A DNA stretch of 41,726 bases, from the IMG/VR virus record IMGVR_UViG_3300045988_034074, one strand, 5' to 3'. Each line of letters starts with the position of its first letter. The first letter of the stretch is position 1. Made by a program: the position numbers and the translations under genes. Below the pieces are notes generated by a model. It was not told the DNA's origin. It did not search any database and worked only from the letters and a program-made list of their open reading frames with translations. Of the stretch, positions 3,439 to 40,385 are shown piece by piece. The DNA comes from a virus.

Positions 3439-6063
3439 ATGCCAACATTAGATGATGAGTTAAAACTTGAGAATGAATACAGACACATGGCGATGGAAAA
3501 ACTCAAGGCAATTCTCTCTCACAAGGAAGAGACTGGAGACGCTTCTCATACAGCCATGGGTGCTGGTCTTATTAACCATCTGTACGACAATTTAGCACAG
3601 AACATGCGTGTATGGTTGGACGTACAGTTGACACCTAAAAGAGGCGTAAAGCCCATGTATTATCAGTTTCTCAAGTACGCCAATGCACAGTATGACGATG
3701 ATGAGACGTTCATTTCTATTCTGTGTCTCTCATTGCTCTCTAATGTCATCAATCAGGCTGCTATCAAGGGCGGGGATGACGAATATCCGTCCCTCTCTCA
3801 TATAGGGGAAATCATTGGTGTGCAGATCACTCAAGAAGTACACTTGCAGGAATTTCTGAACTACTTGCAGGGTGAAGATTATCAGAAGTATATCAATAGC
3901 ACCTTGTTTCAGGACTGGCTTAAAACAAATAACAAGAAAATGTTTGAATTTACCAACATTCCTATTGGTATCGCAAGGGGACTTAAGACAAGAAACAGTG
4001 ACTACTACAGACGCTACTATGTCAGGGAAGTAGAAAACAAGATTGTCGAAGCGGGTATCCCATGGTCTCCAAGGAAATTTGACAAGAACGTATGGTTCAC
4101 TTTAGGGGGCAAGTTAGTAGAGGTGCTGCTTTCCTCTACAGACCTCTTTGAACTCCAGTCGGTAGGTGGTGAGGTTGACAAGCTTCATCCGACACAGAAG
4201 TTCATTGATATTTGGAAGACCAATACAGACTATTCACTCTTGCATGCCTACTCCTCTTGTCCTACCATCATCCTCCCAAAGGACTGGACTGATATCAATG
4301 ATGGGGGCTACTACGGAGAACTGGCAGTCTTTAATAGCATGCTGAGACTCTATCGTTTTCAGGATGGTGGCTACTATTACAAGAAGTACATGAGTAAGCT
4401 CAAGTCTGCTGACCTCTCCAAGCCCATGAAGGCTCTCAATTCTATCCAAAGTACCCCATGGAAAATTGACAAAAAGGTACTGGAAGTGGCTCATGAAATT
4501 GTCAAGATGGGTGGTGATAGAGCTGGTCTGCCACGCACCGAACCATTTGAGGGTCTCCCTAAGCTCCATAATCCAACTGAACAGGAACTCAAGGAACACA
4601 AGCACAAGGCGTATCTGCACTACAAGAAAGAGTCTAGTCGTAAAGGTAAGATGATTAGAGTATTAGCTAACATCAAGACCGCAGACCGTTTTAAGGACTA
4701 TGAGAGGATTTACTTCCCTTGCAACATGGACTTTAGAGGCAGGGTCTATCCTATTCCGCCCTTCTCATTTCAGGGGGATGACCTTAACAAGGGTCTTATT
4801 CAGTTTGCGGATGCCCCCAAGATCACAGACCCAGAGAGCGAGCGTTGGTTCTTGATTGCAGGAGCTGAGTTCGCAGGGATTGACAAGGTGTCTTTTGCTG
4901 AGGAAATCAAGTGGGTCAAGGATAACGAACGCAATATCCTTGATACTGCGGAAGACCCTATAGCTATGTTGGACTGGTGGGGAAATCTTGATTGTCCCTT
5001 TGAGTTCCTTCAGTTCTGCTTTGAATACCATAAGATGATCGACTACAAGGCGAGTCACAATGGGTCTATCATCGGATGGTCAACTGGTGTTCCAGTGGCA
5101 TTTGATGGAACGTGTTCTGGTCTTCAGCACTTTTCGGCAATCTTGAGAGACCCTGTAGGTGCGGAAGCAGTCAATCTGAAACCAAGTGACAGACCTCAAG
5201 ATATCTATGGTCGTGTAGCACAGGTTGTAAATCAAGTATTAAAACATGATTCAGAACAGGGTACAGTAGATGAATGGGATGATGACAAAAATAGGATGAA
5301 GCTCGGGACTAAGACCATGGCACAGTTATGGCTGAACTTTGGTGTCAATAGAAAAGTCACCAAGCGTTCTGTCATGACACTTGCATATGGGTCTAAGGAA
5401 TACGGCTTCAAGGAGCAGATTCTGACAGACACTATTGAACCTCACATGAATGAAGGTGTCTTTACAGAAGCCAATGCACACCCTATGGCTGCTTACATGG
5501 CAAAGCTGATTTGGAATGCAGTTAGAAAAGTAGTAGTCAAGGCTGTCGAAGGCATGGAGTGGCTTCAGAAGGTTACTAGACTCATCTGCAAGAATGAGAA
5601 CGTAGTACAGTGGACTACCCCCATGGGTCTTTTAATCCACCAACCGTACCTGACCACGAAGACCAAGATCTATAGACTCCGCTTTGCACAGACACAGAAG
5701 AGAATTTATGTTCCCTATACATTAGGGGATGTAAATAGCAGAAAGCAAGCTAACTCCATTGCACCGAACTTCATTCATAGCATGGACGCAAGCCACCTTC
5801 AGCTTACGGTCTGCACCGCTAAAGACCAAGGCATTAACCATTTTGCGATGATTCACGACTCTTATGGGACTACAGTAGCGGACGCAGGGGTTCTCTTTAA
5901 GACTGTCAGAGAGTGCTTTGTGAAGATGTACACGGAACATGACGTACTTAAAGAGTTCGCTGAGGAAGTGTCGCACCTGACCGAAAAGGAACTTCCTGAA
6001 CTGCCAAGCAAGGGGTCTTTTGATATCAATGAAGTCCTGAGTAGCCTTTATGCATTTCACTAA
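3439..6063 (+). CDS. T7-like single-subunit DNA-dependent RNA polymerase (874 aa)
   Basis: Motifs DFRGRVYP, FDGTCSGLQHFSA, RSVMTLAYGS, PNFIHSMDASHL and IHDSYGT align with T7 gene 1. The length is close to the T7 protein (883 aa). Confidence 0.97.
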   Translation: MPTLDDELKLENEYRHMAMEKLKAILSHKEETGDASHTAMGAGLINHLYDNLAQNMRVWLDVQLTPKRGVKPMYYQFLKYANAQYDDDETFISILCLSLLSNVINQAAIKGGDDEYPSLSHIGEIIGVQITQEVHLQEFLNYLQGEDYQKYINSTLFQDWLKTNNKKMFEFTNIPIGIARGLKTRNSDYYRRYYVREVENKIVEAGIPWSPRKFDKNVWFTLGGKLVEVLLSSTDLFELQSVGGEVDKLHPTQKFIDIWKTNTDYSLLHAYSSCPTIILPKDWTDINDGGYYGELAVFNSMLRLYRFQDGGYYYKKYMSKLKSADLSKPMKALNSIQSTPWKIDKKVLEVAHEIVKMGGDRAGLPRTEPFEGLPKLHNPTEQELKEHKHKAYLHYKKESSRKGKMIRVLANIKTADRFKDYERIYFPCNMDFRGRVYPIPPFSFQGDDLNKGLIQFADAPKITDPESERWFLIAGAEFAGIDKVSFAEEIKWVKDNERNILDTAEDPIAMLDWWGNLDCPFEFLQFCFEYHKMIDYKASHNGSIIGWSTGVPVAFDGTCSGLQHFSAILRDPVGAEAVNLKPSDRPQDIYGRVAQVVNQVLKHDSEQGTVDEWDDDKNRMKLGTKTMAQLWLNFGVNRKVTKRSVMTLAYGSKEYGFKEQILTDTIEPHMNEGVFTEANAHPMAAYMAKLIWNAVRKVVVKAVEGMEWLQKVTRLICKNENVVQWTTPMGLLIHQPYLTTKTKIYRLRFAQTQKRIYVPYTLGDVNSRKQANSIAPNFIHSMDASHLQLTVCTAKDQGINHFAMIHDSYGTTVADAGVLFKTVRECFVKMYTEHDVLKEFAEEVSHLTEKELPELPSKGSFDINEVLSSLYAFH

Positions 6064-6090: not shown

Positions 6091-6113
6091 TAATTGAGAC
6101 AAGAAACAGAGGA
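6091..6113 (+). promoter_or_regulatory. Phage RNAP promoter P1 (TAATTGAGACAAGAAACAGAGGA)
   Basis: One of four near-identical 23-mers, all intergenic and all on the + strand. It begins with TAAT as T7 promoters do. Confidence 0.7.
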
Positions 6114-6270
6114 GGAGAGAAAGAAGGTATCTTTAAGATATCTTAAAGAGTCTTACTAGATACCTTAAATCTAGCTACTATATACTATCTTAAAATATCT
6201 TAATATTAAGTATCTTTTAGATAGATAGATAATAGCTAGTAGTTAGTAACCTTATGGTATCTTAAAGACT

Positions 6271-6316
6271 CCATACCGCACCAAAAAGGACTGGTGAGGT
6301 ATGGGGTCTTTTTTGG
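6271..6316 (+). terminator. Intrinsic-type terminator (candidate early terminator)
   Basis: Stem CCATACC/GGTATGG plus CACC/GGTG, followed by GGTCTTTTTTGG with a T6 run. Confidence 0.6.
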
Positions 6317-6361
6317 TGTCTTAAATCTTTGTGTCTTATACCACGAGCCTTCGGCAGTGGC

Positions 6362-6382
6362 AACTGAGAATGTCTCTCAGTT
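6362..6382 (+). other. Perfect 8-bp hairpin AACTGAGA-atgtc-TCTCAGTT immediately upstream of P2
   Basis: Paired by hand. Confidence 0.5.
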
Positions 6383-6384
6383 AG

Positions 6385-6407
6385 TAATTGAGACAAGAAA
6401 CAGAGAA
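6385..6407 (+). promoter_or_regulatory. Phage RNAP promoter P2 (TAATTGAGACAAGAAACAGAGAA)
   Basis: Identical to P1 over 21 nt. It lies 29 nt upstream of the TSCPD gene. Confidence 0.7.
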
Positions 6408-6435: not shown

Positions 6436-6759
6436 ATGCATTTCTCTTTTAAGCCTAAAGGAGTCTGTTGTTGGCAGATTGAGTTCACCTTGACTCCTGT
6501 AGCAAACTTTGATAGGACTGAGGTAGTGCCAAATGAATATTGTGTAACACATATTAAGTTCACTGGTGGCTGCCAAGGTAACTTGAGTTTCATTGCAAAG
6601 CGACTTACAGGCTACACTGCTGCTTGCATTATCGCTACTACAAAGGGACACAAGTGTGGTACTAGACCCACCTCATGCATGAATGAGTTTAGTAAGTGTC
6701 TTGAGAACGCTGTAGAGATTATGAATGACAAGGAGTGGACGTTAGATGACTGCTTTTAA
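6436..6759 (+). CDS. Standalone TSCPD-domain (TIGR03905-like) cysteine-rich protein (107 aa)
   Basis: KGVC..I.F, FTGGCQGN and CGTRPTSCMNEF match the GGCxGN and TSCPD signature of the family, with the conserved Cys positions. RBS is AAAGGAGG. Confidence 0.65.
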   Translation: MHFSFKPKGVCCWQIEFTLTPVANFDRTEVVPNEYCVTHIKFTGGCQGNLSFIAKRLTGYTAACIIATTKGHKCGTRPTSCMNEFSKCLENAVEIMNDKEWTLDDCF

Positions 6760-7045
6760 GTACAGAGTAGGCAAGTTCAAGCTCGGAGATCTGGTCTATG
6801 CCCCCTTCCATGGCTATGGAATGGTGACAGAGATTCTCAAAGAGCCATGTGTCTATCCTATTGTAGTCACATGGTTTGCAACCAATGTACATCTGGTCGA
6901 AAGTGAAAGCACATTCACAGAAGATGGTTATCTGTCTGTCTATGCTAAAGAGGAGGATGCTTTGAAAATCACAGTAGTTAAGAGAAAACACAAGCATGGC
7001 AGGAAGCTCTTAAATCGCTTCAGAGAGTTCCTCAAGGGTGAGTAA
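6746..7045 (+). CDS. Protein with a single Tudor-like module (99 aa)
   Basis: FKLGDLVYAPFHGYGMVTEI...YPIVVTW...FTEDGY is the same module that repeats four times in the next gene. RBS is AAGGAG. Confidence 0.7.
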   Translation: MTAFKYRVGKFKLGDLVYAPFHGYGMVTEILKEPCVYPIVVTWFATNVHLVESESTFTEDGYLSVYAKEEDALKITVVKRKHKHGRKLLNRFREFLKGE

Positions 7046-7075
7046 GTAAATTATACTAAGAACCCTTGCAAACAC

Positions 7076-7109
7076 CTTAGAAACGATTTTGGAGCATCCT
7101 ATGGCTATT
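7076..7109 (+). promoter_or_regulatory. Conserved roughly 35-nt element, copy A (CTTAGAAACGATTTTGGAGCATCCTATGGCTATT)
   Basis: Shares 15 consecutive nt plus further blocks with 40351-40385. Both copies are intergenic. Confidence 0.5.
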
Positions 7110-7131
7110 CTAAGAAAAGAAGGAGGTTATT

Positions 7132-8391
7132 ATGTTTCATGTAGGTGATGAGGTCTATTCCGGAAGATTCGGTGAAGGCATTGTAACGGATGTTGATAAC
7201 AACGACCTGTACATCTATCCTATTCATGTTCAGTGGAAGGATAGCTGCAAGAGAAGCATTTTTACGCCAGAAGGTCGATATAATATCAGCTTTAATGACC
7301 CTGATGTTGACATTTGTATCCTGAAAGTTGGTAAGTTTAAGGTAGGCGATCATGTCTACTCTAAGCACTTTGGTGAAGGTGTAGTGGAACACATTGACGA
7401 CCCTAAGACGAATACATATCCAGTTCAGGTATATTGGATAGGTGCATGTCCTAGGTCTTTCAACTCTTGTGAGTTCTACACACCTGATGGGAAGTTCAAT
7501 AAGTTATACCCTCAGCCTGACAATGACATTATTCATATGTTCAAGCTCACCGATAGAGTCTTTTATCCTTACTACGGCAGAGGTACAGTAGTTGGAGACT
7601 TTAAGACCGATGTTCCATACCCTATTAGAGTCTTTTGGGACAAGCCATATTTTGCGGATGAACCATATAGTTCGTTTACAAGGGATGGGCGTATGTCACT
7701 TCATATGATTGATGGGGATGAGAATTTCAAACTTATGCTGTTAAAAGATATTCCTAAAGAGGAGACAGGAGAGAGCGAAGTGGGACAGATTGCAGGGGTT
7801 ATCAATTATGACATTGCAAAAAAGATGCATGAAGATGAAGAAAAAAGGAGTGTTGAAGGTAAAAAATTTAAGGTAGGAGAACGTGTTTGGTCTCCCTACT
7901 TTGGTGGTGGTGTCGTAACAAAGAATGAAGCAGCTGACAATTTCCCGATTGAAGTTCATTGGGATGATGGTCATCTGGTGGACTATGATTTCTTCATGGC
8001 AGATGGCAAGTTTAACGAAAGTGGCACTCATCCTGAAATGGGTATCTATCACATTGACCCTGAATATGCTGCTAAGGTACTTCCAGATATCATGAAGGAA
8101 CTCGCAGATGAAGATGATGAAGGCACTGTAGAGCGTATGGAAGATGCACTCAACAAGAAGACAGAAGATGCTGTCAACCCAGCCCATTACAAGGTAGAGG
8201 GTCTTCCTGAAGCTATTGACATTATCAACCATTTGATGCATCGGGAGCAGTATGAGGGATTCCTTTGGGGGAACATCCTGAAGTACGCCTATCGCTATGG
8301 CAGAAAAGGGGGCAAAGCAGAGACCGCCGGAAAGATCGCGTGGTACGCAAATCAGCTCAAGGATTTAGCAGAGGAAGGTGACAAGAAATGA
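7132..8391 (+). CDS. Four Tudor-like repeats fused to a C-terminal DUF3310 (T7 gp1.7-like) domain (419 aa)
   Basis: Repeats FHVGDEVYSGRFGEGIV.., FKVGDHVYSKHFGEGVV.., FKLTDRVFYPYYGRGTV.. and FKVGERVWSPYFGGGVV.., each ending in a xTxDGxF-type motif (FTPEGRY, YTPDGKF, FTRDGRM, FMADGKF). The C-terminus NPAHYK...GNILKYAYRYGRKGG is DUF3310-like. The gene sits where T7 has gene 1.7. Confidence 0.8.
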   Translation: MFHVGDEVYSGRFGEGIVTDVDNNDLYIYPIHVQWKDSCKRSIFTPEGRYNISFNDPDVDICILKVGKFKVGDHVYSKHFGEGVVEHIDDPKTNTYPVQVYWIGACPRSFNSCEFYTPDGKFNKLYPQPDNDIIHMFKLTDRVFYPYYGRGTVVGDFKTDVPYPIRVFWDKPYFADEPYSSFTRDGRMSLHMIDGDENFKLMLLKDIPKEETGESEVGQIAGVINYDIAKKMHEDEEKRSVEGKKFKVGERVWSPYFGGGVVTKNEAADNFPIEVHWDDGHLVDYDFFMADGKFNESGTHPEMGIYHIDPEYAAKVLPDIMKELADEDDEGTVERMEDALNKKTEDAVNPAHYKVEGLPEAIDIINHLMHREQYEGFLWGNILKYAYRYGRKGGKAETAGKIAWYANQLKDLAEEGDKK

Positions 8392-8678
8392 CTCTTGAAG
8401 AACTCTTAGAGGTAGTTCCAGATAACTACCCACTTGGTCTTATGGATTCTGACCCAGATAATTATTCTATTCTGGTCTTTGGCAATAAGAAAGACATCAT
8501 TTTTGGCTATGGGCAGAGAGCAAGACTTCTTCCTGAACAGGTGAAGAACTTGAAAGTCGTAGCTATCCATCCCGGTGCTAAACCATATCTTCCAGATGAT
8601 ACTGATATGTATGGTGATGATGCTATTGAACTGCATGTGATTACTAAACTGCTGATTGAGGTGTCTCAGGATGACTAA
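8388..8678 (+). CDS. Hypothetical protein (96 aa)
   Basis: ATGA start/stop overlap with the upstream gene. Confidence 0.6.
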   Translation: MTLEELLEVVPDNYPLGLMDSDPDNYSILVFGNKKDIIFGYGQRARLLPEQVKNLKVVAIHPGAKPYLPDDTDMYGDDAIELHVITKLLIEVSQDD

Positions 8679-8946
8679 GAAACAGTGCATCATCATCGGC
8701 ATTATTTCAGCTATTGTGTCTGGTATCTTCATGTACCTGATGAAATACTTTCCGTATGAATTTGCTCAGGTACTGTTCTGGCTCGTGTCTTTTGCTTTTT
8801 GCTTCGGATGCTTCTATCTGCTGATTGCTATCATCTGGACAAAAGGAGAGATCTTGCCAAACCCATACCCTACTATCTATCCATTTGACCCTCTCATTGA
8901 GGAGAAAATGAAGGAAATTGAAGAGATGAAGAAGGAGAAGAAATGA
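8671..8946 (+). CDS. Small membrane protein (91 aa, 2-3 TM)
   Basis: In-frame ATG at 8671 overlaps the upstream stop. The core is hydrophobic and the C-terminal tail is charged. Confidence 0.6.
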   Translation: MTKKQCIIIGIISAIVSGIFMYLMKYFPYEFAQVLFWLVSFAFCFGCFYLLIAIIWTKGEILPNPYPTIYPFDPLIEEKMKEIEEMKKEKK

Positions 8947-9557
8947 GAATTAACAATCTTCAGGTTTATGACATGCATAATTCAATCAGAGCCAGTGGGT
9001 ATCCAATGAAAGCCCATTTGGACATTGAAGATCAGCACAGATTCCTTGATGAAAAGGACTGGAAGAGAGCTGTGTCTTTAGCAAGCAGAGCGTCTAACGA
9101 AGGACACGATAACTTCCTGTCTGGAATTGTGGTGTCTTTTGACCTGACATGTACTGTCAAGATGTGGACAGAGTTTGAAAGATACCATTTTGCACAGATT
9201 GTGTCTAGTCAGTCAACTATGCATCGTCTGTCCAAAATGGAACTTGATACAGCATTTACACCATACACAGACCCATGGATTGTCAACCGTCTCAAAGAGT
9301 TGCAGAAGAGATACAATGAAGAACCTAGTGAACAGAACTTCTTGATTCTTCTGTATTCCTGTCCTACTGGTCTGCATCTGACTGCTCGGGTAACGACCAA
9401 CTATAGACAGTTGAAGACAATGTTGAAGCAGAGATACAATCACAAGCTGCCTGAATGGAGAAAGTTCTGTCGTGACATTCTGGAGCAGTGTCCGATGGCT
9501 GCTGAGTTTTTGTTAGGAAAAGGAGTATTTAATGAAGCTGCCAACACTGAAAATTAA
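8943..9557 (+). CDS. thyX: ThyX-family (flavin-dependent thymidylate synthase-like) protein with a non-canonical RHR motif (204 aa)
   Basis: GHDNFLSGIVVSF...FERYHFAQIVSSQSTMHR aligns with ThyX GHETPFEHIVFTF...FRHRIASYNELSGRY, and NYRQL aligns with NARSL. RHR reads RYH here. Confidence 0.55.
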   Translation: MRINNLQVYDMHNSIRASGYPMKAHLDIEDQHRFLDEKDWKRAVSLASRASNEGHDNFLSGIVVSFDLTCTVKMWTEFERYHFAQIVSSQSTMHRLSKMELDTAFTPYTDPWIVNRLKELQKRYNEEPSEQNFLILLYSCPTGLHLTARVTTNYRQLKTMLKQRYNHKLPEWRKFCRDILEQCPMAAEFLLGKGVFNEAANTEN

Positions 9558-9984
9558 GAAGCTGTATGAACATGCATTAGTTCCAAAGAAAATGACCAAA
9601 GGTTCGGTGGGTCTTGATCTGGCTGTGTCTGACCCTGTTACCTTTTTTCCGCATGTAGTGACAAAAGTATACACTGGTCTGGCAATGGCAATCCCTAAAG
9701 GATACCATGGTGAACTTCATATCCGTAGTTCATGGGGACAGAGAGGCATTAGACTTGCCAACTGTACAGGCATTATTGACTCCGACTATAGAGGAGAGAT
9801 TACATTGATGGTCATCAATGATTCTGATACTGTGTATCATGCTCTTGAAGGTAAACGCATTGCACAGTTCGTACTGGTGAAAGACCCAGCATTTAACATT
9901 GAAGAAGTAACTGTATTAGACAAAACTGAACGTGGTAATGGTGGATTTGGTTCTACTGATGAAGAAAACAAAGGAGATAAATAA
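9532..9984 (+). CDS. dut: dUTP pyrophosphatase (150 aa)
   Basis: All five dUTPase motifs are present: GSVGLDL, IRSSWG, GIIDSDYRGE, RIAQ and RGNGGFGST. Confidence 0.93.
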   Translation: MKLPTLKIKKLYEHALVPKKMTKGSVGLDLAVSDPVTFFPHVVTKVYTGLAMAIPKGYHGELHIRSSWGQRGIRLANCTGIIDSDYRGEITLMVINDSDTVYHALEGKRIAQFVLVKDPAFNIEEVTVLDKTERGNGGFGSTDEENKGDK

Positions 9985-10603: not shown

Positions 10604-11053
10604 ATGAAGAGGTTTTTCAGTAGGCGAGGAGGTTGGTCTAAGCATGTAGATGCGACCTACAGATCTGGTCTGGAAGACAAAGTAGCAGCACAGCTTAGGG
10701 ATGCAGATATTGATGCGAAGTATGAGGAGTATCAGATTCCATATGAGATTCCAGCTACTTTACATCATTACACTCCTGATTTTGTTTTACCAAACGGTAT
10801 TATTGTAGAGACAAAAGGTGTCTTTGACGTAGATGACAGAAAGAAACATCTGCTCATCAAAAAGCAGTATCCTAAACTGGATATTAGATTTGTCTTTTCA
10901 TCTTCTAAGACACACATTTACAAGGGGTCTAAGACAACGTATGCTGACTGGTGTGACAAATATGGTTTCAAGTTTGCTGATAAATGGATTCCAGACAAAT
11001 GGCTAAGAGAAAGAAAGAGAGCCATCACTGGCTTGATTAAGAAGAAGAAGTAA
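10604..11053 (+). CDS. Endonuclease I, T7 gp3-type Holliday junction resolvase (149 aa)
   Basis: SGLEDKVAAQL, HHYTPDFVLPNGIIVETKG, DRKKHLLIKKQYP and IRFVFSSS closely match T7 endonuclease I. Confidence 0.93.
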   Translation: MKRFFSRRGGWSKHVDATYRSGLEDKVAAQLRDADIDAKYEEYQIPYEIPATLHHYTPDFVLPNGIIVETKGVFDVDDRKKHLLIKKQYPKLDIRFVFSSSKTHIYKGSKTTYADWCDKYGFKFADKWIPDKWLRERKRAITGLIKKKK

Positions 11054-11073
11054 TTGAGACAAGAAACAGAGAA
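11051..11073 (+). promoter_or_regulatory. Phage RNAP promoter P3 (TAATTGAGACAAGAAACAGAGAA)
   Basis: Identical 21-nt core. It lies 16 nt upstream of the gp3.5-like gene. Confidence 0.7.
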
Positions 11074-13100: not shown

Positions 13101-13115
13101 TAACTAGGAGGAACT

Positions 13116-14999
13116 ATGAAAGTTGATTGGGAAGATCGTGAAGTATCTATGGGTATCTTCAAAGCAAAGTATGCGAAGAACGCCGAAGAGACTCCAGAAG
13201 AATTTTGTGAAAGAGTAGCGTCTATCGTAAGACCAGAACTTCACGACTTTGTTAAAGAGAGTCTGGAAGCAGGAAGATTCTGTTTCGGAGGACGAACTCT
13301 CTACATGGCAGGAAGACCAGAAGTTAAGGCTTCTTCTTCTAACTGCTACATTATGCCGATGCCAGAAGATGACATTGAGTCTATCTATAAGTCCAATGCA
13401 CAGATGGCTCGTATTTTCTCCAGAGGTGGTGGAGCTGGTGTAAACATCTCCAACCTTAGACCAAAGGGAGCTAAAGTCCGTAATGCAGCCGAAACCTCTA
13501 CTGGTGCAATTTCCTTCTTGGAACTGTACAACACCACTGGTAACATCATTGGGGCGAGAGGGCGTAGAGCAGCAGAAATGGTCGTTCTGAATTGCGACCA
13601 TCCTGATGTTGAAGCTCTTCTGGATATGAAAGCATCTGGCGAAAAGTTGGCATCTATGAATATCTCGGTACTTTTCACTGATGAATTTATGGAAGCCGTT
13701 CTGAATAATAAGAAGTTCAGACTCCACTTTGAGTGTAAAGACACAGGTGAGAACATTGAGAAATGGATTGATGCTAGAAAGTTCTTCACACATTTTTGTG
13801 AGGTTGCTTGGGATATGGGAGATCCTGGGGTTCTGTTTAATGAGCGTATTCAGCAGCATAACTTTAATCCTAACCGTCCTAGCTATCATATTTCCACTTC
13901 CAATCCATGCAGTGAATTTCTTGGTGCTGACTACAGCTCGTGCAATCTCGGTTCTATCAATGTCTATAGCTTTGTTAGAAATAAGTTCCGCACTGATGCA
14001 TTCTTCGACTACAAAGCATTCTGCGAAACTGTAGTCAAAGCTGTAATGGCACTGAACGATGTTCTCTCTTATGGTTACGATAAGCAGCCACTCCCAGAAA
14101 ACAAGAAGTGCATTGATGACTGGAGACAGATTGGTCTGGGTCTGTTTGGTCTTGCAGATGCATTTGTAGCTCTCCGTATCAAATATGGTTCTGAAGAGTC
14201 TATTAAATTCGTAGACACCCTTCTGAAGACCATGCATGATATGGCAGTGAGAGCTTCTGTTGGTGAAGCTATCAGATTTGGGTCTTACGGTAAGTTCTTC
14301 AAAGGTATCCTTCCGACTGTTGATAAAGACCTGATGACCACTGAGGAACTGGATAGTGTAATGAAACATGGGATGGCTAATGCTTCTCTTCTGTCTATTG
14401 CACCTACAGGTACAATGAGTCTCTTCATGGGGAACTTTACAGGTGGCTGTGAACCTATCTTTAAGCTCTTCTATGATCGCTCTACACATAAGATGGAGAA
14501 GACTGGAGACAGCTTCCGTGTCTATGCAAGATCTATTGAAGACCTTCTGAACTACAATGGTCTTTCTTTGGATATGAGTGTAGAGGAAATCAAAGAGATG
14601 TTCCCATGGGTCGTTGAAGCACATGACATTCCGTGGGCAAGCCGCGTTATTCTCCAGTCCACTATGCAGAAGTATGTTGACAATGCTATTAGCTCTACTG
14701 TCAACCTTCCGCATGATGCAACTGTTGATGATGTATTTAATATCTATGTTGCAGCTTGGAGAAGTGGATGTAAAGGTATTACGGTATTCCGTGATGGATG
14801 CCGTAGAGGTAATATCCTTGGGGTTGAAGAGAAGAAAGAAAAGGTTGAACCAAAGAAAGCAGAGCCAGCACCAAAGAAGCCAACTTGCAGCGGAGATGCT
14901 GATTATAGAGAATGCCCAGAGTGTCATGAAAAACTCTTTAAGGTTGAAGGGCATTGTGGTTATTGCGTTGGTTGCGGTTATAGTGCTTGTGGCATGTAA
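13116..14999 (+). CDS. nrdJ: Class II (adenosylcobalamin-dependent) ribonucleotide reductase (627 aa)
   Basis: Active-site SNPCSEF, TVNLP and GCKGITVFRDGCR, plus a C-terminal Cys-rich zinc-ribbon tail CPECHEKLFKVEGHCGYCVGCGYSACG. Confidence 0.88.
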   Translation: MKVDWEDREVSMGIFKAKYAKNAEETPEEFCERVASIVRPELHDFVKESLEAGRFCFGGRTLYMAGRPEVKASSSNCYIMPMPEDDIESIYKSNAQMARIFSRGGGAGVNISNLRPKGAKVRNAAETSTGAISFLELYNTTGNIIGARGRRAAEMVVLNCDHPDVEALLDMKASGEKLASMNISVLFTDEFMEAVLNNKKFRLHFECKDTGENIEKWIDARKFFTHFCEVAWDMGDPGVLFNERIQQHNFNPNRPSYHISTSNPCSEFLGADYSSCNLGSINVYSFVRNKFRTDAFFDYKAFCETVVKAVMALNDVLSYGYDKQPLPENKKCIDDWRQIGLGLFGLADAFVALRIKYGSEESIKFVDTLLKTMHDMAVRASVGEAIRFGSYGKFFKGILPTVDKDLMTTEELDSVMKHGMANASLLSIAPTGTMSLFMGNFTGGCEPIFKLFYDRSTHKMEKTGDSFRVYARSIEDLLNYNGLSLDMSVEEIKEMFPWVVEAHDIPWASRVILQSTMQKYVDNAISSTVNLPHDATVDDVFNIYVAAWRSGCKGITVFRDGCRRGNILGVEEKKEKVEPKKAEPAPKKPTCSGDADYRECPECHEKLFKVEGHCGYCVGCGYSACGM

Positions 15000-15026
15000 G
15001 TAAAGCATATAAGGAGGAAATTAGAT

Positions 15027-18337: not shown

Positions 18338-18360
18338 TAATTGAGTCAAGAAACAGAGGA
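18338..18360 (+). promoter_or_regulatory. Phage RNAP promoter P4 (TAATTGAGTCAAGAAACAGAGGA), head of the structural block
   Basis: One mismatch to the consensus. The position corresponds to T7 phi6.5. Confidence 0.65.
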
Positions 18361-21423: not shown

Positions 21424-21445
21424 ATTGAAAAGGAGTTGATTATTA

Positions 21446-22435
21446 GTGGCAGACGTTACTGTCGCACAGCCCGGTCAGATTCAGGGTACTACTGACGCTC
21501 TGGGTGCTTATCTGAAAGTCTTTGCTGGTGAAACTCTGGCAGCTTTCTCTCGTTCTTCCGTTACGATGGGAAGACACATTGTCCGTACTATTTCTTCTGG
21601 TAAATCTGCACAGTTCCCGGTATTCGGTCGTGCAGACGCAGCTTACCTGAAACCGGGTAAGTCTCTTGATGATATCCGTCAGAACATTCCGACTGGTGAA
21701 AAGATCATCGTTATTGATGGTCTTCTGACTACCTCTCAGATGATTCCGGATATTGATGAGGCTCTGTCTCATTTTGATGTTCGCTCTGAATACTCCAAAC
21801 AGATGGGTGAAGCACTTGCTCTGAAAATGGATGGTGCTGTACTTGCTGAAGCAGCAAAAATGGTTGTTGCCAACAAGGAAAATCTGACTGGTCTGGGTAA
21901 AGGTGAGATCATCACTAAGAAGCTCGCAGCAGCTGATATTGGTGTTACTGAAGCAGAAGGTAAGGCTCTGGTACAGGCTCTTCTGGAAATTAAGGCTAAA
22001 ATGTCTAACAACTACGTTCCAGAAACTGAACGCTATGTCTTTATGACCCCAGAAGCTCGTACTGCACTCATTGCATCTCTGGTCGCTATTAACCGTGATT
22101 ACGGTGGTGTAGCAACTATTACTGATGCTAACATCCTCCGTATTGCTGGCTTCGATATCATCGAATGTCCACACCTGACCATGGGTGGTGCAGAAGTCAA
22201 CGATGGTCTGCTTCAGGGTGATGGTCATGTCTTCCCGGCTACTTACAAAAACAAGTGTGCATTCATTGCAATGCATAAGTCCGCTGTAGGTACGGTTAAG
22301 CTCCGTGACCTGAAGCTCGAACGTGCAAGACGAGCAGAATATCAGGCTGATATGCTTGCAGCTTCTTATGCTGTAGGGCATGGCGGTCTGCGTCCAGAAG
22401 CAGCTTACATGGGTTGCATTGAAGCAACTCTGTAA
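21446..22435 (+). CDS. Major capsid protein, T7 gp10-like (329 aa)
   Basis: GTG start with RBS AAGGAG. LKVFAGETLAAFSRSSVTMGRHIVRTISSGKSAQFPVFGR aligns closely with T7 gp10A. Confidence 0.95.
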   Translation: MADVTVAQPGQIQGTTDALGAYLKVFAGETLAAFSRSSVTMGRHIVRTISSGKSAQFPVFGRADAAYLKPGKSLDDIRQNIPTGEKIIVIDGLLTTSQMIPDIDEALSHFDVRSEYSKQMGEALALKMDGAVLAEAAKMVVANKENLTGLGKGEIITKKLAAADIGVTEAEGKALVQALLEIKAKMSNNYVPETERYVFMTPEARTALIASLVAINRDYGGVATITDANILRIAGFDIIECPHLTMGGAEVNDGLLQGDGHVFPATYKNKCAFIAMHKSAVGTVKLRDLKLERARRAEYQADMLAASYAVGHGGLRPEAAYMGCIEATL

Positions 22436-28917: not shown

Positions 28918-31900
28918 ATGACTAATGTTGATGCTTTTCTAGCTGCTATCTCTGGAACAGAATCTGGTGGTGACTATGAGGCATATAATGAAAGTACAGG
29001 AGCTAGAGGCAAATATCAGTTTATTCCTAGCACCTATGCTGAGTATGCGGATGACCCAGATGACTGGTCTCCAGAGCAGCAGGAATTAGCAGCACATAGA
29101 ATGGCAGCTGAGTATATTGAAAAGTATGGATATAGAAATGCTGCTATTGCTTGGCAGGGTGGTGAAGGTGCCATTGGACATGAAGACTGGTCTGATGGCA
29201 ACATGACCACTGGCGAATATGCAGATGCAACGATGACTAGACTTCAAGCTATTATGGCTGGTGATGCCATTGATAATTTCGTTACCCCTTCTGGTGCTTA
29301 TGGGATGACACATCCATTTGCTCGCCCTAATCTTCCAGAAGCTCAGAAGGTCTATGGATTCTGGGATGAATTTTATAACAAGTTCATGAATCAGTTCGTA
29401 GATCAGGGTTCTGTGTCTGCGGTAAGAACTGCATGGGCAAACTTTGTTAATAGAGACTCTATGGCTGAATGGGCTATGAGTGACTATAAACCCTCTCAGG
29501 AAGATATTGAACTTGTCCAGAAGGGTCTTGAAGGTGACTCTATTGCTCAGAACTATGTTCTGTCTAATGCTCATAACAGAAAGACTCTTTTGGAACTCTT
29601 AGCAATGAAGCAGGAAGATCGTGATAGAGCTAATTCTGTAGATAACATGGACTATGGTTTGTCTTCAGTAGGTTCTATTCTTGGTTCTGTTCTTGACCCT
29701 ACGATTCTTTTAGCATTCGTTCCGGGGCTAGGAGTAGGCACTATTGCTGGTATTGCTTCTAAGGCTGCTAAAGTGAGATCTTTAATATCTCTTGGTGGTA
29801 AAGTTATCAATGAGCATAGAGCAGCTAAGATTGCAGCTAATGCTCTTACTTCTATGGTATATGCCGGAGCAGATAGATTTGCAGCACAGCGTTGGGGGGG
29901 CTTCACTCCAGACTATGCAACTGCAATGACCTTTGGTGGTATCTTAGGTGCTATTGGTGGGGCTATCTCTAAGTCCGGTGGTGGCGAAATGGCAAGACTG
30001 CTGGACAACAATAAGAAGAGACTTGAAGAAGAAACTGTTCGTGTTGCTATTGGTGCTACTCCACACATGGAAGCTAAACCAAATGCTCAGGCTGCTCTGG
30101 CTAAAGATATGATGGATGACTTTACTCAGGAAGGTACTGACATTGATCTTCACTATAAAGAGCGAGCAGCAAAAGCAGCAGCTGAGAAGGCTGAACTTGA
30201 AAGAGAGCCAGACGTTGCTCAGGAAGGTGCTTCTCTTGCAGGAGACTTCCAGTTCAGAAAAGATGCTGTAGCTCCAGAACAGATCAGTGGTGGTAAAGAC
30301 TTCAGCAAAGAAGTTAAGCAGAATGAAAACACTACTACAGGTATTCCTCAGCAGAAGCCATTTGAGACTGAAGCTCCTATTAGTCCTACTGGGGCTGTAG
30401 AGAATCTTAATAATGCTGCTGATGTTGTCTATCATGATCTTGTAGAACCTAACTCTATTACTGATACCCTTATCAAAAATGGTCAGTTGTTTATTCTTAC
30501 CGAAGCCAAAGCTCGCAAATGGGCTGCTCGGTATGGTGTGCAGCTAGACCCAAATGCTAAGGCTTTCAGTTTACCGGGTCTTGGTGTCTCTGTATTGATT
30601 CGTGAAAAGATCAATAAGAGAAACCTCACAGGGGTCGTTATGCATGAAGCTGGTGTCCATATGGCACTTCGCAACATGATTGAACCGAAGCTCTATGATG
30701 AGATCTTAGGCATCGTTAAAGATCGAATGGAACACTCTACAGACAAAGAGTGGATTAGAGCTACACGAAAGGCAACAAGTCCAGAGGAAGCTCTTGCTTA
30801 CTGGATTGAAAATATGGGTAACAGAAAGAAGAGGGATAGTGTCGTTAAGAGAGTCCGTCAGGGACTTGAACAGTGGCTTGACCCGAACTTTGATGCTGAT
30901 AAGTGGGTAGCAGACACAGTTGCTGGTGCTTTGAAACGTTATGCAGCTAAGAATAAAGATGTTGCTAAAGTTGTCAATATGATTCTTGACCCAGCTCGTG
31001 AAGTGAAGAGTAAACAGTGGGCAGCTGCTATAAAGGCTACTGGGTCTACTAACCCAGAAATTATCTTTAAGCATTGGATTACACATAAACCTAACAAAAA
31101 CTCTGCATTGTATAAAGAGATCAAAAGACAGGCAGAACTTGCATATGAAAGCAAAGAGCTGACTGATAAAGAGATCGAAGACTTTGCATTGAAGAAGTAT
31201 TTCCATTCTGACCTCTATGAAGATGCCCCAGTGGTAACTTCTAAGAATAAGAATAAGAAACCAACTGTTGAGGCTGTGGAGTCTAATGAGCATAAAGAGA
31301 TCAAAGAAGAACCAAAGGTCTTTGAAGACACAGAAAATCATGCTCAAGAAAGAGCTGACAACTCTCAGGGTAGTCTTGTGGACTCTTTGATGATGCGTAA
31401 CGCTGAAGAGACAATTCACAAGAATGACCCAGTACAGACACTTCCAGATGGTTCTCATATCATCAATGGTGTAACGTACTCTAAGAATAATGTCAATGGT
31501 GAGGGTATTGCTCAGACCGCAGAAGATATTGGTGAGATTGACTACTCTAAGGAGCATAAGGCTCAGACTATCTTTGACCCAGTATCTGATAAAGGACAAA
31601 GTTCTAAAGTACGTCAGGGTCACTTTGGTCGTGTGGGTCTGTTCATGGAACATGGTCTGTTTAATGGTACTATTTTTGGTATCATGAGAAACTCTCATTC
31701 CAGACTCTTGCAGATGCTGTCTAATATTCTGTTCAGAGACCCACGAATGGAAGCCTCTTATATTGACCACCTTCCAGCAGAAAGCATTAAAGATATGATG
31801 CTTGCTCGTTGGAATAATCAATATTATGCATTTGTTGAGAAACGTATGGACTACATTAAAAAGAACATTGGTTTCTTCCATAGCCTCATGAGAAACAACT

Positions 31901-34287
31901 GCATCAAAAAGGTCAATGAACAGATCATTCAGTGCTACAATGCAAAAGCTAGAGGAGACACTTTGGCTCTCAAAAAGTTCTCGCCAGAAATTCAGAGTAT
32001 GGCTAATGATCTTGAAGAGCTGCATAATGACATTCTGAAGCAGATGCAGACACGTTCAGAGAATCTTGGAGGGAGAAAAGGTCTTGGGTCTTTACTGGCT
32101 CAGATGGATACTGAAAACACCTCTAGGGAGTTCTTCCGCGTTACTAACTACACCAAACTTTATGAGTGGATGGGTCGTAACTACGATGATGCTAATGACT
32201 GCTTGGCAGATCTGACTGAGTATGCTAGACGCTTTATGGATAGAGATGCTGAGACTAAATACTTCATTGAGATGAAGAAACGTGAGTTTGAAGCTAAGAA
32301 GAAGACCTACAAAGGAAAGAAACCTCTCCAGTGGTCTGAACCTACAGAGGAAGAAATTGAGGAACATCTTGAACAGGCAGCTAAGAATTGGGCATATGGG
32401 CGTATAGATCAGAATAACTCTAAACTTAACTTCTCTCTTGATGACATGAATCTGAAGAATCCTTACACGGCTTGTGCAGACTCCTTGAAGCACAGACTCC
32501 CAGTAGATACTTCCGGGGTCATGAAGCTGAAGAATGGTGTCGAATTTAGCTTTGATAAGGATCTTAGAAGTTATGACCTTGATAACTTCTTACCGCAGAT
32601 TATGAACAGACTCAGTGGTGAAATTGCTCTTAGAGCTACCATTGGTGACTCTAAGGCACAGCAGGAGTTCTATTCTAAGATTGCACAGGAGATTACTAAG
32701 AACTCTCCGATCAGAAATGGTGGTAGAGAACTTGAAGCAATGCAGATGGGTCTTCATAAGATTCTTGGTATTGGGTCTTACAATGTTAATGAACAGAAGG
32801 GCTGGGATGCCTTTTCTAACATGTGGAGAGCTGCTACTTATGCTAACGTAGGGGGTAACATGACCTCTGCACAGTTAGGTGAACTTGGTGGCTCTATTGG
32901 CTATGGTGGCTGGAAAGTTCTGGTCAACAACATTCCGGGTCTTAGAAACTTAGGCAAAACTCTTAGACTTGGTAAGACTGGGGCTGAGATTGTCGATAAT
33001 GTCACTCGTAAGCTCTGGGCAGAAGAGATTGGTATCCATGGTTGGAGTACCTCTGCTTCTACAGCCTCTAAGATCTATGGGGAACTCTTTGATAAGGTGT
33101 CTGCGGATAATCCAGTACCATCTATGATTGGTAGAGGACTTGACGCAACTAATAGAACCATTAAGAGAACTGCTCTTCTTACCTCTTCTGTCAACTTTAT
33201 GCCAAAGCTCACTAACTGCATGGTTCAGTCTATGCGTAATGCAGCGATTGAAGATAGCTTGAAGTGGGCTGAAGGTAAGAACATGAAGGGGTGGTTCAGA
33301 AGACCATTCTCAGATAAGAAGTTAGCAGCAGCTGGTATTCATACAGCTGAGATGGCTGAAAAGGTTCGTCAGGCTACCAAAAAGTACCTTATTGATGAAC
33401 GTGGTAATCTTGACCATTGGCTTCAGGAAGACCCAATAACGTTCTCCAAATGGAAGCAACTCATGGATAATGAATCTATGAGAGGTATCCAGCAGCAGTC
33501 TATTGGTAACATGAACCCATTTAGAGAGAAGCATAGACTCTTCTTCCAGTTCAAAGACTTTACGATGAAGGCTATGAATCAGCAGTTCATGAGAGCTTTA
33601 TCGTCCCATGAAAGAGATGATGGTATGGCTGCTCTCTATTCGTACATGACCAATACAGCTACCTTCTATGCTTGGACTGTAGCTAAGTCCTATATGTATT
33701 ATCCAAATGATGAACAGAAGAGACAGGAGTACATGGAGAGAAATGGTAATCTCCAGCATGTCCTTCTCTCTGGTCTTTTCCGTATGTCTATGACTGCACC
33801 TCTGTCCTTCTTGGCTGATGGCTGGGAAATTGCTACAGGTCAGTCTATGTACAGAACTACGGTTGATAATACTAGAAGCAAAGCAGAGGCTGATAGGTCT
33901 TGGGATAAGATTGCACTTAGTGCTATCAATCAGGTTCCTACTGCCGGGACAGCTAAAAGAGTCTTTAATATGGGGCAGAGTGTTAAACATTTTGTGTCTG
34001 GTGATGCCACTAACGGTGATGTTGATAGATTCGTTCAGGCATTCCCTCTGGGGTCTTACCTCGGTATGTCCTATCTTGGTTCTATGATTAAGGAGAACAC
34101 AAATCTCCCAGACAAGAGATCGGACTACACTAAAGGACAGCAGACCCATAAAACTAAGAAGGCTAAGAAGGCTAAGAAGGCACAGAAGCTGGGTAGTGTT
34201 AAAGCAAAGACCAAAACTCAGTCACTCTTGACTTCTAAGCCAAAGGCAGCTAACAAGACACAGAAATTGATTGACAGTAATAAGTAA
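28918..34287 (+). CDS. Internal virion protein D, gp16-like, with an N-terminal lytic transglycosylase domain (1789 aa)
   Basis: N-terminal ISGTESGGDYEAY...GKYQFIPSTY has an SLT-type catalytic Glu-Ser and GxYQ. It is the largest gene, lies just before the tail fibre, and has a Lys-rich C-terminal tail. Confidence 0.85.
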   Translation: MTNVDAFLAAISGTESGGDYEAYNESTGARGKYQFIPSTYAEYADDPDDWSPEQQELAAHRMAAEYIEKYGYRNAAIAWQGGEGAIGHEDWSDGNMTTGEYADATMTRLQAIMAGDAIDNFVTPSGAYGMTHPFARPNLPEAQKVYGFWDEFYNKFMNQFVDQGSVSAVRTAWANFVNRDSMAEWAMSDYKPSQEDIELVQKGLEGDSIAQNYVLSNAHNRKTLLELLAMKQEDRDRANSVDNMDYGLSSVGSILGSVLDPTILLAFVPGLGVGTIAGIASKAAKVRSLISLGGKVINEHRAAKIAANALTSMVYAGADRFAAQRWGGFTPDYATAMTFGGILGAIGGAISKSGGGEMARLLDNNKKRLEEETVRVAIGATPHMEAKPNAQAALAKDMMDDFTQEGTDIDLHYKERAAKAAAEKAELEREPDVAQEGASLAGDFQFRKDAVAPEQISGGKDFSKEVKQNENTTTGIPQQKPFETEAPISPTGAVENLNNAADVVYHDLVEPNSITDTLIKNGQLFILTEAKARKWAARYGVQLDPNAKAFSLPGLGVSVLIREKINKRNLTGVVMHEAGVHMALRNMIEPKLYDEILGIVKDRMEHSTDKEWIRATRKATSPEEALAYWIENMGNRKKRDSVVKRVRQGLEQWLDPNFDADKWVADTVAGALKRYAAKNKDVAKVVNMILDPAREVKSKQWAAAIKATGSTNPEIIFKHWITHKPNKNSALYKEIKRQAELAYESKELTDKEIEDFALKKYFHSDLYEDAPVVTSKNKNKKPTVEAVESNEHKEIKEEPKVFEDTENHAQERADNSQGSLVDSLMMRNAEETIHKNDPVQTLPDGSHIINGVTYSKNNVNGEGIAQTAEDIGEIDYSKEHKAQTIFDPVSDKGQSSKVRQGHFGRVGLFMEHGLFNGTIFGIMRNSHSRLLQMLSNILFRDPRMEASYIDHLPAESIKDMMLARWNNQYYAFVEKRMDYIKKNIGFFHSLMRNNCIKKVNEQIIQCYNAKARGDTLALKKFSPEIQSMANDLEELHNDILKQMQTRSENLGGRKGLGSLLAQMDTENTSREFFRVTNYTKLYEWMGRNYDDANDCLADLTEYARRFMDRDAETKYFIEMKKREFEAKKKTYKGKKPLQWSEPTEEEIEEHLEQAAKNWAYGRIDQNNSKLNFSLDDMNLKNPYTACADSLKHRLPVDTSGVMKLKNGVEFSFDKDLRSYDLDNFLPQIMNRLSGEIALRATIGDSKAQQEFYSKIAQEITKNSPIRNGGRELEAMQMGLHKILGIGSYNVNEQKGWDAFSNMWRAATYANVGGNMTSAQLGELGGSIGYGGWKVLVNNIPGLRNLGKTLRLGKTGAEIVDNVTRKLWAEEIGIHGWSTSASTASKIYGELFDKVSADNPVPSMIGRGLDATNRTIKRTALLTSSVNFMPKLTNCMVQSMRNAAIEDSLKWAEGKNMKGWFRRPFSDKKLAAAGIHTAEMAEKVRQATKKYLIDERGNLDHWLQEDPITFSKWKQLMDNESMRGIQQQSIGNMNPFREKHRLFFQFKDFTMKAMNQQFMRALSSHERDDGMAALYSYMTNTATFYAWTVAKSYMYYPNDEQKRQEYMERNGNLQHVLLSGLFRMSMTAPLSFLADGWEIATGQSMYRTTVDNTRSKAEADRSWDKIALSAINQVPTAGTAKRVFNMGQSVKHFVSGDATNGDVDRFVQAFPLGSYLGMSYLGSMIKENTNLPDKRSDYTKGQQTHKTKKAKKAKKAQKLGSVKAKTKTQSLLTSKPKAANKTQKLIDSNK

Positions 34288-37614: not shown

Positions 37615-37869
37615 ATGAGACTCATCAAATGGAGTCTTCGTTACCTTCTATTTTGTTTAGTGCTTTATCTTGTGATGACCTTATATGAATGGGTCGTTAC
37701 AGGTCATGCTAACTTATCTGAATTTAGACAATACATCACCGCCGTTGGTGGGTTGACTATTGCTATTCAGACCTTTAGCAGATGGCTAGTAGATAGCGAC
37801 CATGATGGTATCCCAGATGAAGCCAAAAAAGATAATGAAAGGAGATTCCCACCATATGACCCCAGATGA
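37615..37869 (+). CDS. Two-TM membrane protein, holin candidate (84 aa from the ATG at 37615; track start is 37543)
   Basis: Two hydrophobic helices (LRYLLFCLVLYLVMTLYEWVV and ITAVGGLTIAIQTF) and a charged C-terminus. It overlaps the endolysin start. Confidence 0.5.
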   Translation: MRLIKWSLRYLLFCLVLYLVMTLYEWVVTGHANLSEFRQYITAVGGLTIAIQTFSRWLVDSDHDGIPDEAKKDNERRFPPYDPR

Positions 37870-40350: not shown

Positions 40351-40385
40351 CTTAGAAACGATTTTAGAGCGTTCTGGAGGCTATT
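40351..40385 (+). promoter_or_regulatory. Conserved roughly 35-nt element, copy B (CTTAGAAACGATTTTAGAGCGTTCTGGAGGCTATT)
   Basis: Aligned by eye with 7076-7109. Confidence 0.5.

Follow-up and report, generated by a model that had tools for sequence, protein, structure and literature searches.

The closest described relative of the system analyzed here is gp1.7 of phage T7, a member of the DUF3310 family (PF11753). Metal-independent dTMP/dGMP kinase activity is known only for the full-length T7 gp1.7 protein (cited in PMC7693777). In addition, T7 gp1.7 activates the defence protein EfAvs5 (PMC11897194), and DUF3310 proteins were cytotoxic in mycobacteriophage overexpression screens (PMC10700055, PMC9339283). 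A second described group consists of the bacterial Tudor-like domains. Most of the characterized ones (Mfd, CarD, RapA, PcrA/UvrD, and NusG-KOW) act on the transcription machinery, and mutagenesis indicated that residues H681, W684, K712, and L714 of the PcrA Tudor domain are needed for binding to RNA polymerase (RNAP), with UvrD K708 as the equivalent of K712 (PMC5397179). Here, we analyzed a 41,726-nucleotide (nt) stretch of viral DNA, IMG/VR record IMGVR_UViG_3300045988_034074 (the window), with a focus on two neighboring open reading frames (ORFs) of 99 and 419 codons, ORF99 and ORF419. ORF419 is a new form of gp1.7/DUF3310 protein, in which the DUF3310 domain is preceded by an array of Tudor-like domains, probably adaptors, that can be shuffled and for which Pfam has no model.

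The initial annotation of this DNA, which was made from the letters alone, had placed five Tudor-like modules in the two ORFs, one in ORF99 and four in ORF419. Alignment, pairwise BLASTP, and a hidden Markov model (HMM) scan found the same five modules at the same positions. In an alignment of the five segments (64 to 72 amino acids [aa] in length), F, V, G, G, V, P, V, W, and G were invariant. In profile-free pairwise BLASTP, the ORF99 module (type E) matched all four ORF419 modules (types A to D) with E-values of 1e-8 to 1e-5, and module A matched modules B, D, and C with E-values of 2e-16, 1e-8, and 5e-5, respectively. The ORF99 module matched the module HMM with an E-value of 1.8e-21, and a six-frame HMM scan of the window produced just the five modules and no sixth. 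The sequence pattern that all five had been said to share was right as a consensus but degenerate in three of them: LTD replaces VGD in module C, GE, FP, and MADG are the departures in module D, and FH and PEG are those in module A. When the window modules were compared to each other, scores of 62 to 146 were obtained, relative to self-scores of 356 to 413. With approximately 30% identity between types, the module duplication is old, and the shuffling described below is recent.

The C-terminal part of ORF419 was a member of the gp1.7 family, as the initial annotation had proposed. Residues 349 to 407 matched PF11753 with 60 bits (cut-off of 24; E-value of 2.3e-16), a model that T7 gp1.7 itself matched with an E-value of 4.5e-23. 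Direct BLASTP aligned the ORF419 C-terminus with residues 106 to 168 of T7 gp1.7 (35% identity over 71 aa; E-value of 3e-10), and the DUF3310 part of ORF419 matched the PHROG families annotated as nucleotide kinase. About 30 residues in the DUF3310 region were invariant across homologues, and T7 gp1.7 and ORF419 shared the motifs P-x-HY and GNILKY-x-x-R-x-G-K-K. The predicted gp1.7 position of the gene also held. Each of the two genes is found after the phage RNAP gene (gene 1) and before the gene for a gp2.5-type single-stranded DNA-binding protein (SSB), and both are apparently middle genes. In the window, the order is RNAP, an ORF with a TSCPD domain, ORF99, and ORF419, and then on to dUTPase, SSB, and endonuclease I.

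The N-terminal parts of the two proteins are unrelated. T7 gp1.7 begins with a Cys-rich region of approximately 105 aa, whereas ORF419 has four barrels and an invariant linker helix. The linker between modules C and D contains the motif GQIAGVINYDIAKKMH (aa 217 to 233, nt 7780 to 7830), which was near-invariant in all homologues. Residues G218, Q219, I220, A221, G222, N225, and I228 were invariant in every module architecture, and most of them were conserved at 90% or more in an alignment of 65 sequences (A5). DSSP assigned a helix to aa 219 to 239, a region of low predicted local distance difference test (pLDDT) score. Because GQIAGVINYDIAKKMH was near-invariant whatever modules flanked it, we regard it as part of a conserved core together with DUF3310. 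The closest DUF3310 proteins of other phages were 70 to 136 aa in length and had no barrel, and some consisted of DUF3310 alone (70 to 78 aa). Since the extension is Cys-rich in T7, is lacking where DUF3310 stands alone, and consists of one to four barrels here, the N-terminal extension of DUF3310 proteins is a lineage-specific accessory.

A search of 5.8 billion proteins yielded 367 relatives of ORF419, and the following figures on module number refer to the best 120 of the 367. All 120 contained DUF3310, which was preceded by two modules in 73 proteins, three modules in 34, and four modules in 13. Relatives in IMG/VR carried one to three modules. When modules were typed against the five window copies, at least 25 architectures were found, including C-D (28 proteins), E-D (19), A-D (15), A-B-C (11), A-B-C-D and its variants (11), A-B (7), and A-B-D (6), as well as B-C-D, A-B-E-b, and others. 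Alignments showed that proteins with 75% to 92% identity in their shared parts differed by clean insertion or deletion of whole modules. In about 19 of the 120 relatives, a type-E module was part of the DUF3310 protein itself through an in-frame fusion ahead of that domain, and in several others it was encoded by a stand-alone upstream ORF, which argues that ORF99 and ORF419 form one functional unit. The set in the window, four fused modules and one separate module, was the largest seen. Each module type was well conserved between phages; thus, the barrels seem to be maintained and are not decaying spacers.

The initial annotation had known of no such architecture in T7-like phages. This held for the cultured phages that we searched. 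In GenBank phages, tblastn found no match to the module region even at an E-value of 1 or lower, and the full-length protein matched DUF3310 tails only. The modules were absent from those DUF3310 phages (ESh6, EFA-2, HTVC033P, CRP-7, and 1N2-2) and from the T7 left arm. The architecture was, however, widespread in metagenomic relatives and present in UniProt/BFVD under the name "Nucelotide kinase" (A0A8S5QMN1). BFVD neighbors with "ct" names presumably come from a human-metagenome survey.

To describe the module fold, we used an AlphaFold2 model of module B that was built from an alignment of 50 module sequences of homologues. In this model (pLDDT of 89.5; predicted template modeling [pTM] score of 0.78), four to five strands form a small barrel. 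Foldseek returned no PDB entry at an E-value of 1e-3 or lower. The best neighbors, with E-values of 0.06 to 0.6, were headed by PsaE (template modeling [TM] scores of 0.61/0.68), and UvrD/PcrA C-terminal Tudor domains and CarD/CdnL were among them. The UvrD C-terminal Tudor domain on the RNAP lobe (7egs_B) had TM scores of 0.56/0.70 and a probability of 1.0; other UvrD/PcrA Tudor matches (5dma, 7egt_B, 6yi2, and 9dqs) had probabilities of 0.9 to 1.0 and E-values of 0.07 to 0.4, and the CdnL/CarD entries 2lqk, 4xax, and 4kbm had TM scores of 0.39 to 0.44. A lineage-specific module profile produced a similar set of PDB matches (CarD, E-value of 0.01; PsaE, 0.014; UvrD, 0.1). In hhalign, the module profile matched the Escherichia coli UvrD C-terminal domain with a probability of 76% over 24 columns, and the segment consisting of a linker and module D showed a weak likeness to the UvrD C-terminus (NCBIfam E-value of 0.005).

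In the model of full-length ORF419 (pLDDT of 68; pTM of 0.41), there were four separate barrels, acidic linkers of low confidence, and a helical C-terminal domain. Because the barrels were separate, the linkers were of low confidence, and the pTM was 0.41, the domains of ORF419 are best pictured as beads on a string. The best PDB match of the full-length model was to the tandem KOW barrels of Spt5 (E-value of 3e-6; TM score of approximately 0.12), followed by PsaE, CarD, UvrD, and tandem Tudor proteins. These results supported the view that the modules are SH3/Tudor-like small barrels, as modeled, and are akin to the CarD and UvrD/PcrA domains, with weak Foldseek E-values for the single module. 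The comparison of single repeats with these domains, which the initial annotation had proposed, pointed to a small barrel and not to an unrelated fold, but every match of the window modules was below threshold.

The likenesses to each neighbor are specific and partial. The PcrA/UvrD Tudor domain (PF21196; 5DMA, 7EGS, and 6YI2) and the modules share an F-x-[VL]-G-[DQ]-x-V-x(4)-[FWY]-G-x-G-x-[VI] hairpin. In contrast to that domain, the modules are N-terminal and tandem, are not joined to a helicase domain, are about 15 to 20 aa longer, and have a long, variable β3-β4 loop and an FTxDG strand. CarD/CdnL and the RNAP-interacting domain (RID) of Mfd (TRCF) (PF02559; 4KBM, 4XAX, and 2LQK) are of the same fold class, and the first 24 or so residues of CarD and a module were near-identical in pattern in a comparison that included FKVGDHVYSKHFGEGVVEHID. 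Unlike CarD, the modules lack the C-terminal DNA-binding domain and equivalents of R25 and R47. PsaE (photosystem I subunit IV, PF02427), which comes from a wholly different biological context, shares the segment G-x-G-x-V...D...YP-V-x-V-x-F. Finally, Spt5/NusG KOW, 53BP1, and Spindlin tandem Tudor proteins resemble ORF419 in having several small barrels per chain that serve as docking platforms. These arrays are eukaryotic, the modules had no KOW match in Pfam, and the global TM score was approximately 0.12, so the likeness is architectural only.

The module family extends well beyond the relatives of ORF419. When 1.84 billion representative proteins were searched exhaustively with the module profile in HMMER, 890 proteins were found at an E-value of 1e-3 or lower and 104 at 1e-10 or lower, counted as representatives at 50% identity. 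In a Pfam scan of 145 family representatives, there were matches to DUF3310 (41), CarD_TRCF_RID (22; best E-value of 6.9e-12), PcrA_UvrD_tudor (17; best E-value of 1.1e-14), PsaE (12), and DUF3553 (3). The distant tandem-array member P0193 scored 54 bits with PcrA_UvrD_tudor, 38 with CarD_TRCF_RID, and 37 with CAP_GLY, all above the Pfam gathering scores, and the distant members P0214 and P0164 likewise exceeded gathering scores, P0214 doing so with CarD_TRCF_RID. CAP-Gly and YccV-like models also matched family members, and single members matched the YccV-like hemimethylated-DNA-binding and Phage_ProQ_C_like models. The best match of a broad profile built from 116 diverse modules (A4) was PsaE (E-value of 4e-5, including a common YPVVVRF strand); the UvrD C-terminal domain followed with E-values of 4e-4 to 5e-4, and CarD was outside the top 60. 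The module is a branch of the SH3/Tudor-like small-barrel superfamily that has no Pfam model and bridges PcrA/UvrD, CarD, and PsaE. PHROG scans of single modules gave weak matches only, to families of unknown function. One PHROG family, phrog_4943, seems to consist of one barrel and DUF3310, and cluster look-ups for distant family members led to metagenomic proteins only.

We favor the idea, to which we assign a probability of about one half, that the barrels are adaptors for protein docking, which would tether the DUF3310 domain to a partner or concentrate it there, with the type and number of modules setting partner range and valency. Docking is supported by the structural neighbors, since UvrD/PcrA Tudor, CarD/CdnL, PsaE, tandem Tudor, and Spt5 KOW domains bind proteins. 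The analysis demonstrated the repeats and how they fold, the homology to DUF3310, the setting of the genes, and the combinatorial variation; docking, tethering, and kinase activity are inferred, along the following lines. ORF419 belongs to the gp1.7/DUF3310 family as a middle gene (class II-like), with a conserved core made of the GQIAGVINYDIAKKMH helix and DUF3310. Its variable N-terminal extension is a flexible string of independently folding, acidic barrels of types A to D, with type E supplied separately by the upstream ORF99. Each barrel type would recognize a partner protein or peptide, probably in the phage nucleotide-supply, replication, or transcription machinery or in the host. Phage recombination swaps, adds, and deletes whole barrels and would thereby change valency and partner range.

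Several points weigh against this idea. The free gain and loss of module types indicates that none is individually essential, which fits a dispensable or regulatory role as well. Core and turn positions account for the residues that the module types have in common, and a shared functional surface is not visible. As a catalytic unit on its own, DUF3310 would be small (about 60 to 75 aa), and its pLDDT in the full-length model was 50 to 79. There was no solved structure for DUF3310, searching the PDB with the sequence of this region yielded no match, and the DUF3310 helices had no match in the Foldseek search of the full-length model.

RNAP β as the partner is a special case of the docking-adaptor idea and was the case that the initial annotation had put forward. 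Here, the barrels would dock on the β subunit of host RNAP (β1/lobe) like CarD, the Mfd RID, and the UvrD/PcrA Tudor domain, and the multivalent array would act by sequestering or tethering RNAP, by competing with the host's Mfd, UvrD, or CarD, or by bringing DUF3310 to the enzyme, replacing a gp2-type inhibitor. We consider this rather unlikely. It is favored by the Foldseek match to 7egs_B, by the recurrence of CarD, UvrD, and PcrA in the PDB profile searches (including the hhalign match to UvrD), by the distant family members that exceed the Pfam thresholds for PcrA_UvrD_tudor and CarD_TRCF_RID, and by the roles of characterized bacterial Tudor-like domains in transcription. However, the modules of the window itself did not reach the Pfam cut-offs. 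The best PcrA_UvrD_tudor match was 12.4 bits (cut-off of 23.9; E-value of 0.15) and was confined to aa 71 to 90, single modules did not match this model, and CarD_TRCF_RID matched neither ORF99, ORF419, nor single modules. The CarD and UvrD matches of the window lineage covered the β1-β2 hairpin only, while the A4 profile reached UvrD β3. Furthermore, PsaE, which is unrelated to RNAP, fit as well or better and shares the YPVxVxF strand; thus, the GDxVxxxxFGxGxV hairpin is a signature of the fold and not a mark of RNAP binding. The contact residues were also not conserved. When the modules were aligned with the E. coli UvrD C-terminus (GYKLGQRVRHAKFGEGTIVNMEGSGEHSRLQVAFQGQGIKWLV), an alignment that is uncertain in its C-terminal half, the PcrA H681 position was occupied by S, S, Y, S, and A in the five modules, and no conserved lysine in the FTxDG strand matched K712. 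The aromatic residue at the W684 position was kept in the modules, but it is kept in PsaE too. CarD contacts RNAP through R25 and R47, and the positions aligned with them were not conserved in the modules. Because CarD and Mfd bind RNAP largely through backbone β-sheet augmentation, such mismatches are compatible with RNAP binding. The β subunit is a highly conserved target, yet each module type was dispensable in some close relative. No homologue of gp2 or gp0.7 was recognized in the window, in agreement with the earlier statement that a gp2-type host RNAP inhibitor was not found. This would suit a replacement of gp2 but carries little weight because gp2 is small and lineage-restricted, and its absence is uninformative outside enterobacterial T7-like phages. 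Taken together, RNAP binding by the modules was unsupported by the searches. A stronger version, in which the barrels are phage mimics of the host's RNAP-docking Tudor domains and form a multivalent, shufflable array on the β-subunit sites of an RNAP that probably belongs to Dialister or another Veillonellaceae member, in a lineage without gp2, is quite improbable. If true, the barrels could prevent transcription-coupled repair or the action of CarD, stall or sequester RNAP, and place a kinase-type domain there, and they would constitute a new class of host-RNAP takeover factor.

Two other explanations were weighed. Instead of targeting DUF3310, the barrels may be oligomerization or regulatory domains of a DUF3310 enzyme, or fast-evolving decoys or shields in a defence conflict. 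That near-identical phages differ in a combinatorial manner in the modules they carry is what one would expect of accessory or conflict loci, and the activation of EfAvs5 by gp1.7 and the cytotoxicity of DUF3310 proteins (PMC11897194, PMC10700055, and PMC9339283) point in the same direction. There was no direct evidence for either role, the modules were well conserved within a type instead of hypervariable, and no inter-domain packing was seen in the full-length model with its pTM of 0.41, so we regard this explanation as unlikely. Alternatively, the barrels could bind nucleic acid (single-stranded DNA, RNA, or modified DNA) like KOW, YccV-like, or ProQ-C domains and thereby place DUF3310 on phage DNA that is being replicated or transcribed. 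The single family members that matched YccV-like and Phage_ProQ_C_like models, the Spt5 KOW arrays at the top of the full-length Foldseek search, and the strongly basic tail of ORF99 (isoelectric point [pI] of 11.6) would agree with this. Against it, the modules are acidic to neutral (pI of 4.4 to 6.8) and the net charge of ORF419 is -25, which disfavors direct nucleic-acid binding. There was also no basic patch conserved across module types, and the Spt5 match, given its TM score, reflects repeated barrels only. Nucleic-acid binding is therefore very improbable in our judgment. We also considered and rejected two further candidates. A cell-wall-binding SH3b domain was rejected on the basis of no SH3b match, no signal peptide, and a position among middle DNA-metabolism genes, and a virion or structural role was rejected on the basis of gene position and the DUF3310 fusion.

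The features of the locus are listed in Table 1. A 21-nt motif, TAATTGAGACAAGAAACAGAG, occurs in four intergenic copies on the + strand (one with a single mismatch), relative to 0.02 copies expected by chance, and it also emerged as a repeat family (D2) of the window. Based on their position and repetition, these copies are probably promoters for the phage RNAP; since only four were found, the late promoters may be different. Because TAATTGAGACAAGAAACAGAG copies that read as phage promoters lie upstream, ORF99 and ORF419 would be middle genes. The ATG of ORF419 is preceded by a strong Shine-Dalgarno sequence, AAGGAGG. Between the first two TAATTGAGACAAGAAACAGAG copies, positions 6112 to 6384, just downstream of the RNAP gene, are non-coding and AT-rich, with many TATCTTAA-like repeats and, toward the end, a hairpin and then a T-run at about 6272 to 6320. 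In T7, the primary replication origin is located at the same position. A 25-nt sequence, CTTAGAAACGATTTTGGAGC, in the ORF99-ORF419 spacer (7076 to 7100) recurs with 88% identity at 40351 to 40375, near the right genome end, and no RNA structure signal was detected in the intergenic region from 7040 to 7125 (z = 0.15).

Table 1. Features of the module locus and nearby genes (positions are those of the window)
Feature	Position (nt)	Strand	Residues (aa)	Description
Phage RNA polymerase gene	3439-6063	+		Single-subunit
Putative phage-RNAP promoter, TAATTGAGACAAGAAACAGAG copy 1	6091-6111	+		Just after RNAP gene
Putative phage-RNAP promoter, TAATTGAGACAAGAAACAGAG copy 2	6385-6405	+		30 nt upstream of TSCPD-ORF99-ORF419 string
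TSCPD (4-Cys) ORF	6436-6759	+	107 aa	Overlaps ORF99 start by 14 nt
ORF99	6746-7045	+	Module at 7-78	Stand-alone type-E module (nt 6764-6979) and basic tail
ORF99 basic tail KRKHKHGRKLLNRFREFLKGE	6980-7042	+		pI 11.6
ORF419	7132-8391	+	419 aa	Four modules and DUF3310
Module A	7132-7323	+	1-64	Alignment, HMM, BLASTP; AlphaFold2 barrel strands aa 7-44, pLDDT 85-90
Module B	7324-7539	+	65-136	Alignment, HMM; single-module AlphaFold2 model
Module C	7540-7746	+	137-205	Alignment, HMM, AlphaFold2 model
Acidic linker 1	7747-7866	+		Contains motif GQIAGVINYDIAKKMH; predicted helical
Module D	7867-8067	+	246-312	Alignment, HMM, AlphaFold2 model
Acidic linker 2	8068-8172	+	313-347	Conserved EGTVERMEDALNKK helix
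DUF3310 C-terminal helical domain and stop codon	8173-8391	+	348-419	gp1.7-type
96-aa ORF	8388-8678	+	96 aa	ATG overlaps ORF419 stop (ATGA); translationally coupled
ThyX-like ORF and dUTPase gene	8943-9984	+		The two genes overlap; for the ThyX-like one, Thy1 E-value 4e-4, below Pfam cut-off; PHROG 6721 E-value 1e-46
TAATTGAGACAAGAAACAGAG copies 3 and 4	11051-11071, 18338-18358	+		Motif match

The TSCPD ORF matched the Pfam TSCPD model (E-value of 9.5e-11) and NCBIfam TIGR03905 (E-value of 2.5e-14, below the cut-off), and its place upstream of the module genes was kept in relatives. Elsewhere, TSCPD domains are associated with ribonucleotide reductases. Downstream, the 96-aa ORF is a candidate functional partner of ORF419 because a counterpart with the same overlap was found in all relatives examined. 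The ThyX-like, dUTPase, and DUF3310 genes make up a thymidylate-oriented nucleotide cluster that is unusual for T7-like phages, and a pathway from dUMP via dTMP to dTDP would be consistent with a dTMP kinase of the gp1.7 type.

A single match was found among 185,579 species genomes. The matching locus is part of a 2.5-Mb contig from Dialister sp. i34-0019-2H8 (NZ_BAABYQ010000001.1, 2,003,531 to 2,012,196). The T7-type RNAP of this locus was 52% identical to that of the window, closer than the RNAP of any GenBank phage; its ORF lacks the first 200 or so residues in frame, and a C5-methyltransferase-like gene is inserted. The locus encodes a 230-aa protein with two barrels and DUF3310, a coupled small ORF (the 90-aa counterpart of the 96-aa ORF), and genes for a ThyX-like protein, SSB, endonuclease I, and an amidase, and the gene order matches that of the window. 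These results suggest that the phage clade infects Dialister or other Veillonellaceae, and the Dialister locus may be a T7-like prophage or remnant.

The window itself is the complete or near-complete genome of a T7-like podophage with all named genes on the + strand, including those for a single-subunit RNAP, gp2.5-type SSB, endonuclease I, primase-helicase, and the usual late genes. No close relative was found by megablast among 50,697 GenBank phages, and its RNAP had at most 36% identity to any known Autographiviridae RNAP. The exact ORF419 protein recurred on contigs of approximately 41.6 kb in 55 blocks of public assemblies, which indicates that this is a common uncultivated phage. The window ends (1 to 100 and 41627 to 41726) each consist of about nine tandem copies of an 11-nt unit, AAGAGTGCTTG, which could represent either a direct repeat at the termini of the phage genome or a circular assembly that overlaps itself. 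On the - strand, stop-free ORFs of 634, 312, 439, and 187 aa (13104 to 15008, 21443 to 22381, 30706 to 32025, and 37775 to 38338) mirror long + strand ORFs nearly end to end, and codon and strand composition probably accounts for these four antisense ORFs.

Few early and middle phage proteins are as widespread as those of the DUF3310/gp1.7 family. In the lineage described here, recognizable, presumably docking domains recombine on one conserved core, and each barrel type could be used as bait for DUF3310 targets. The barrel family is sizeable and, with its 890 representatives and no Pfam model, merits a model of its own. If the partner is host RNAP, the array would represent a new host-takeover mechanism. 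If the partners instead act in replication or nucleotide synthesis, the array would suggest that T7-like phages have an organized dNTP-supply complex.

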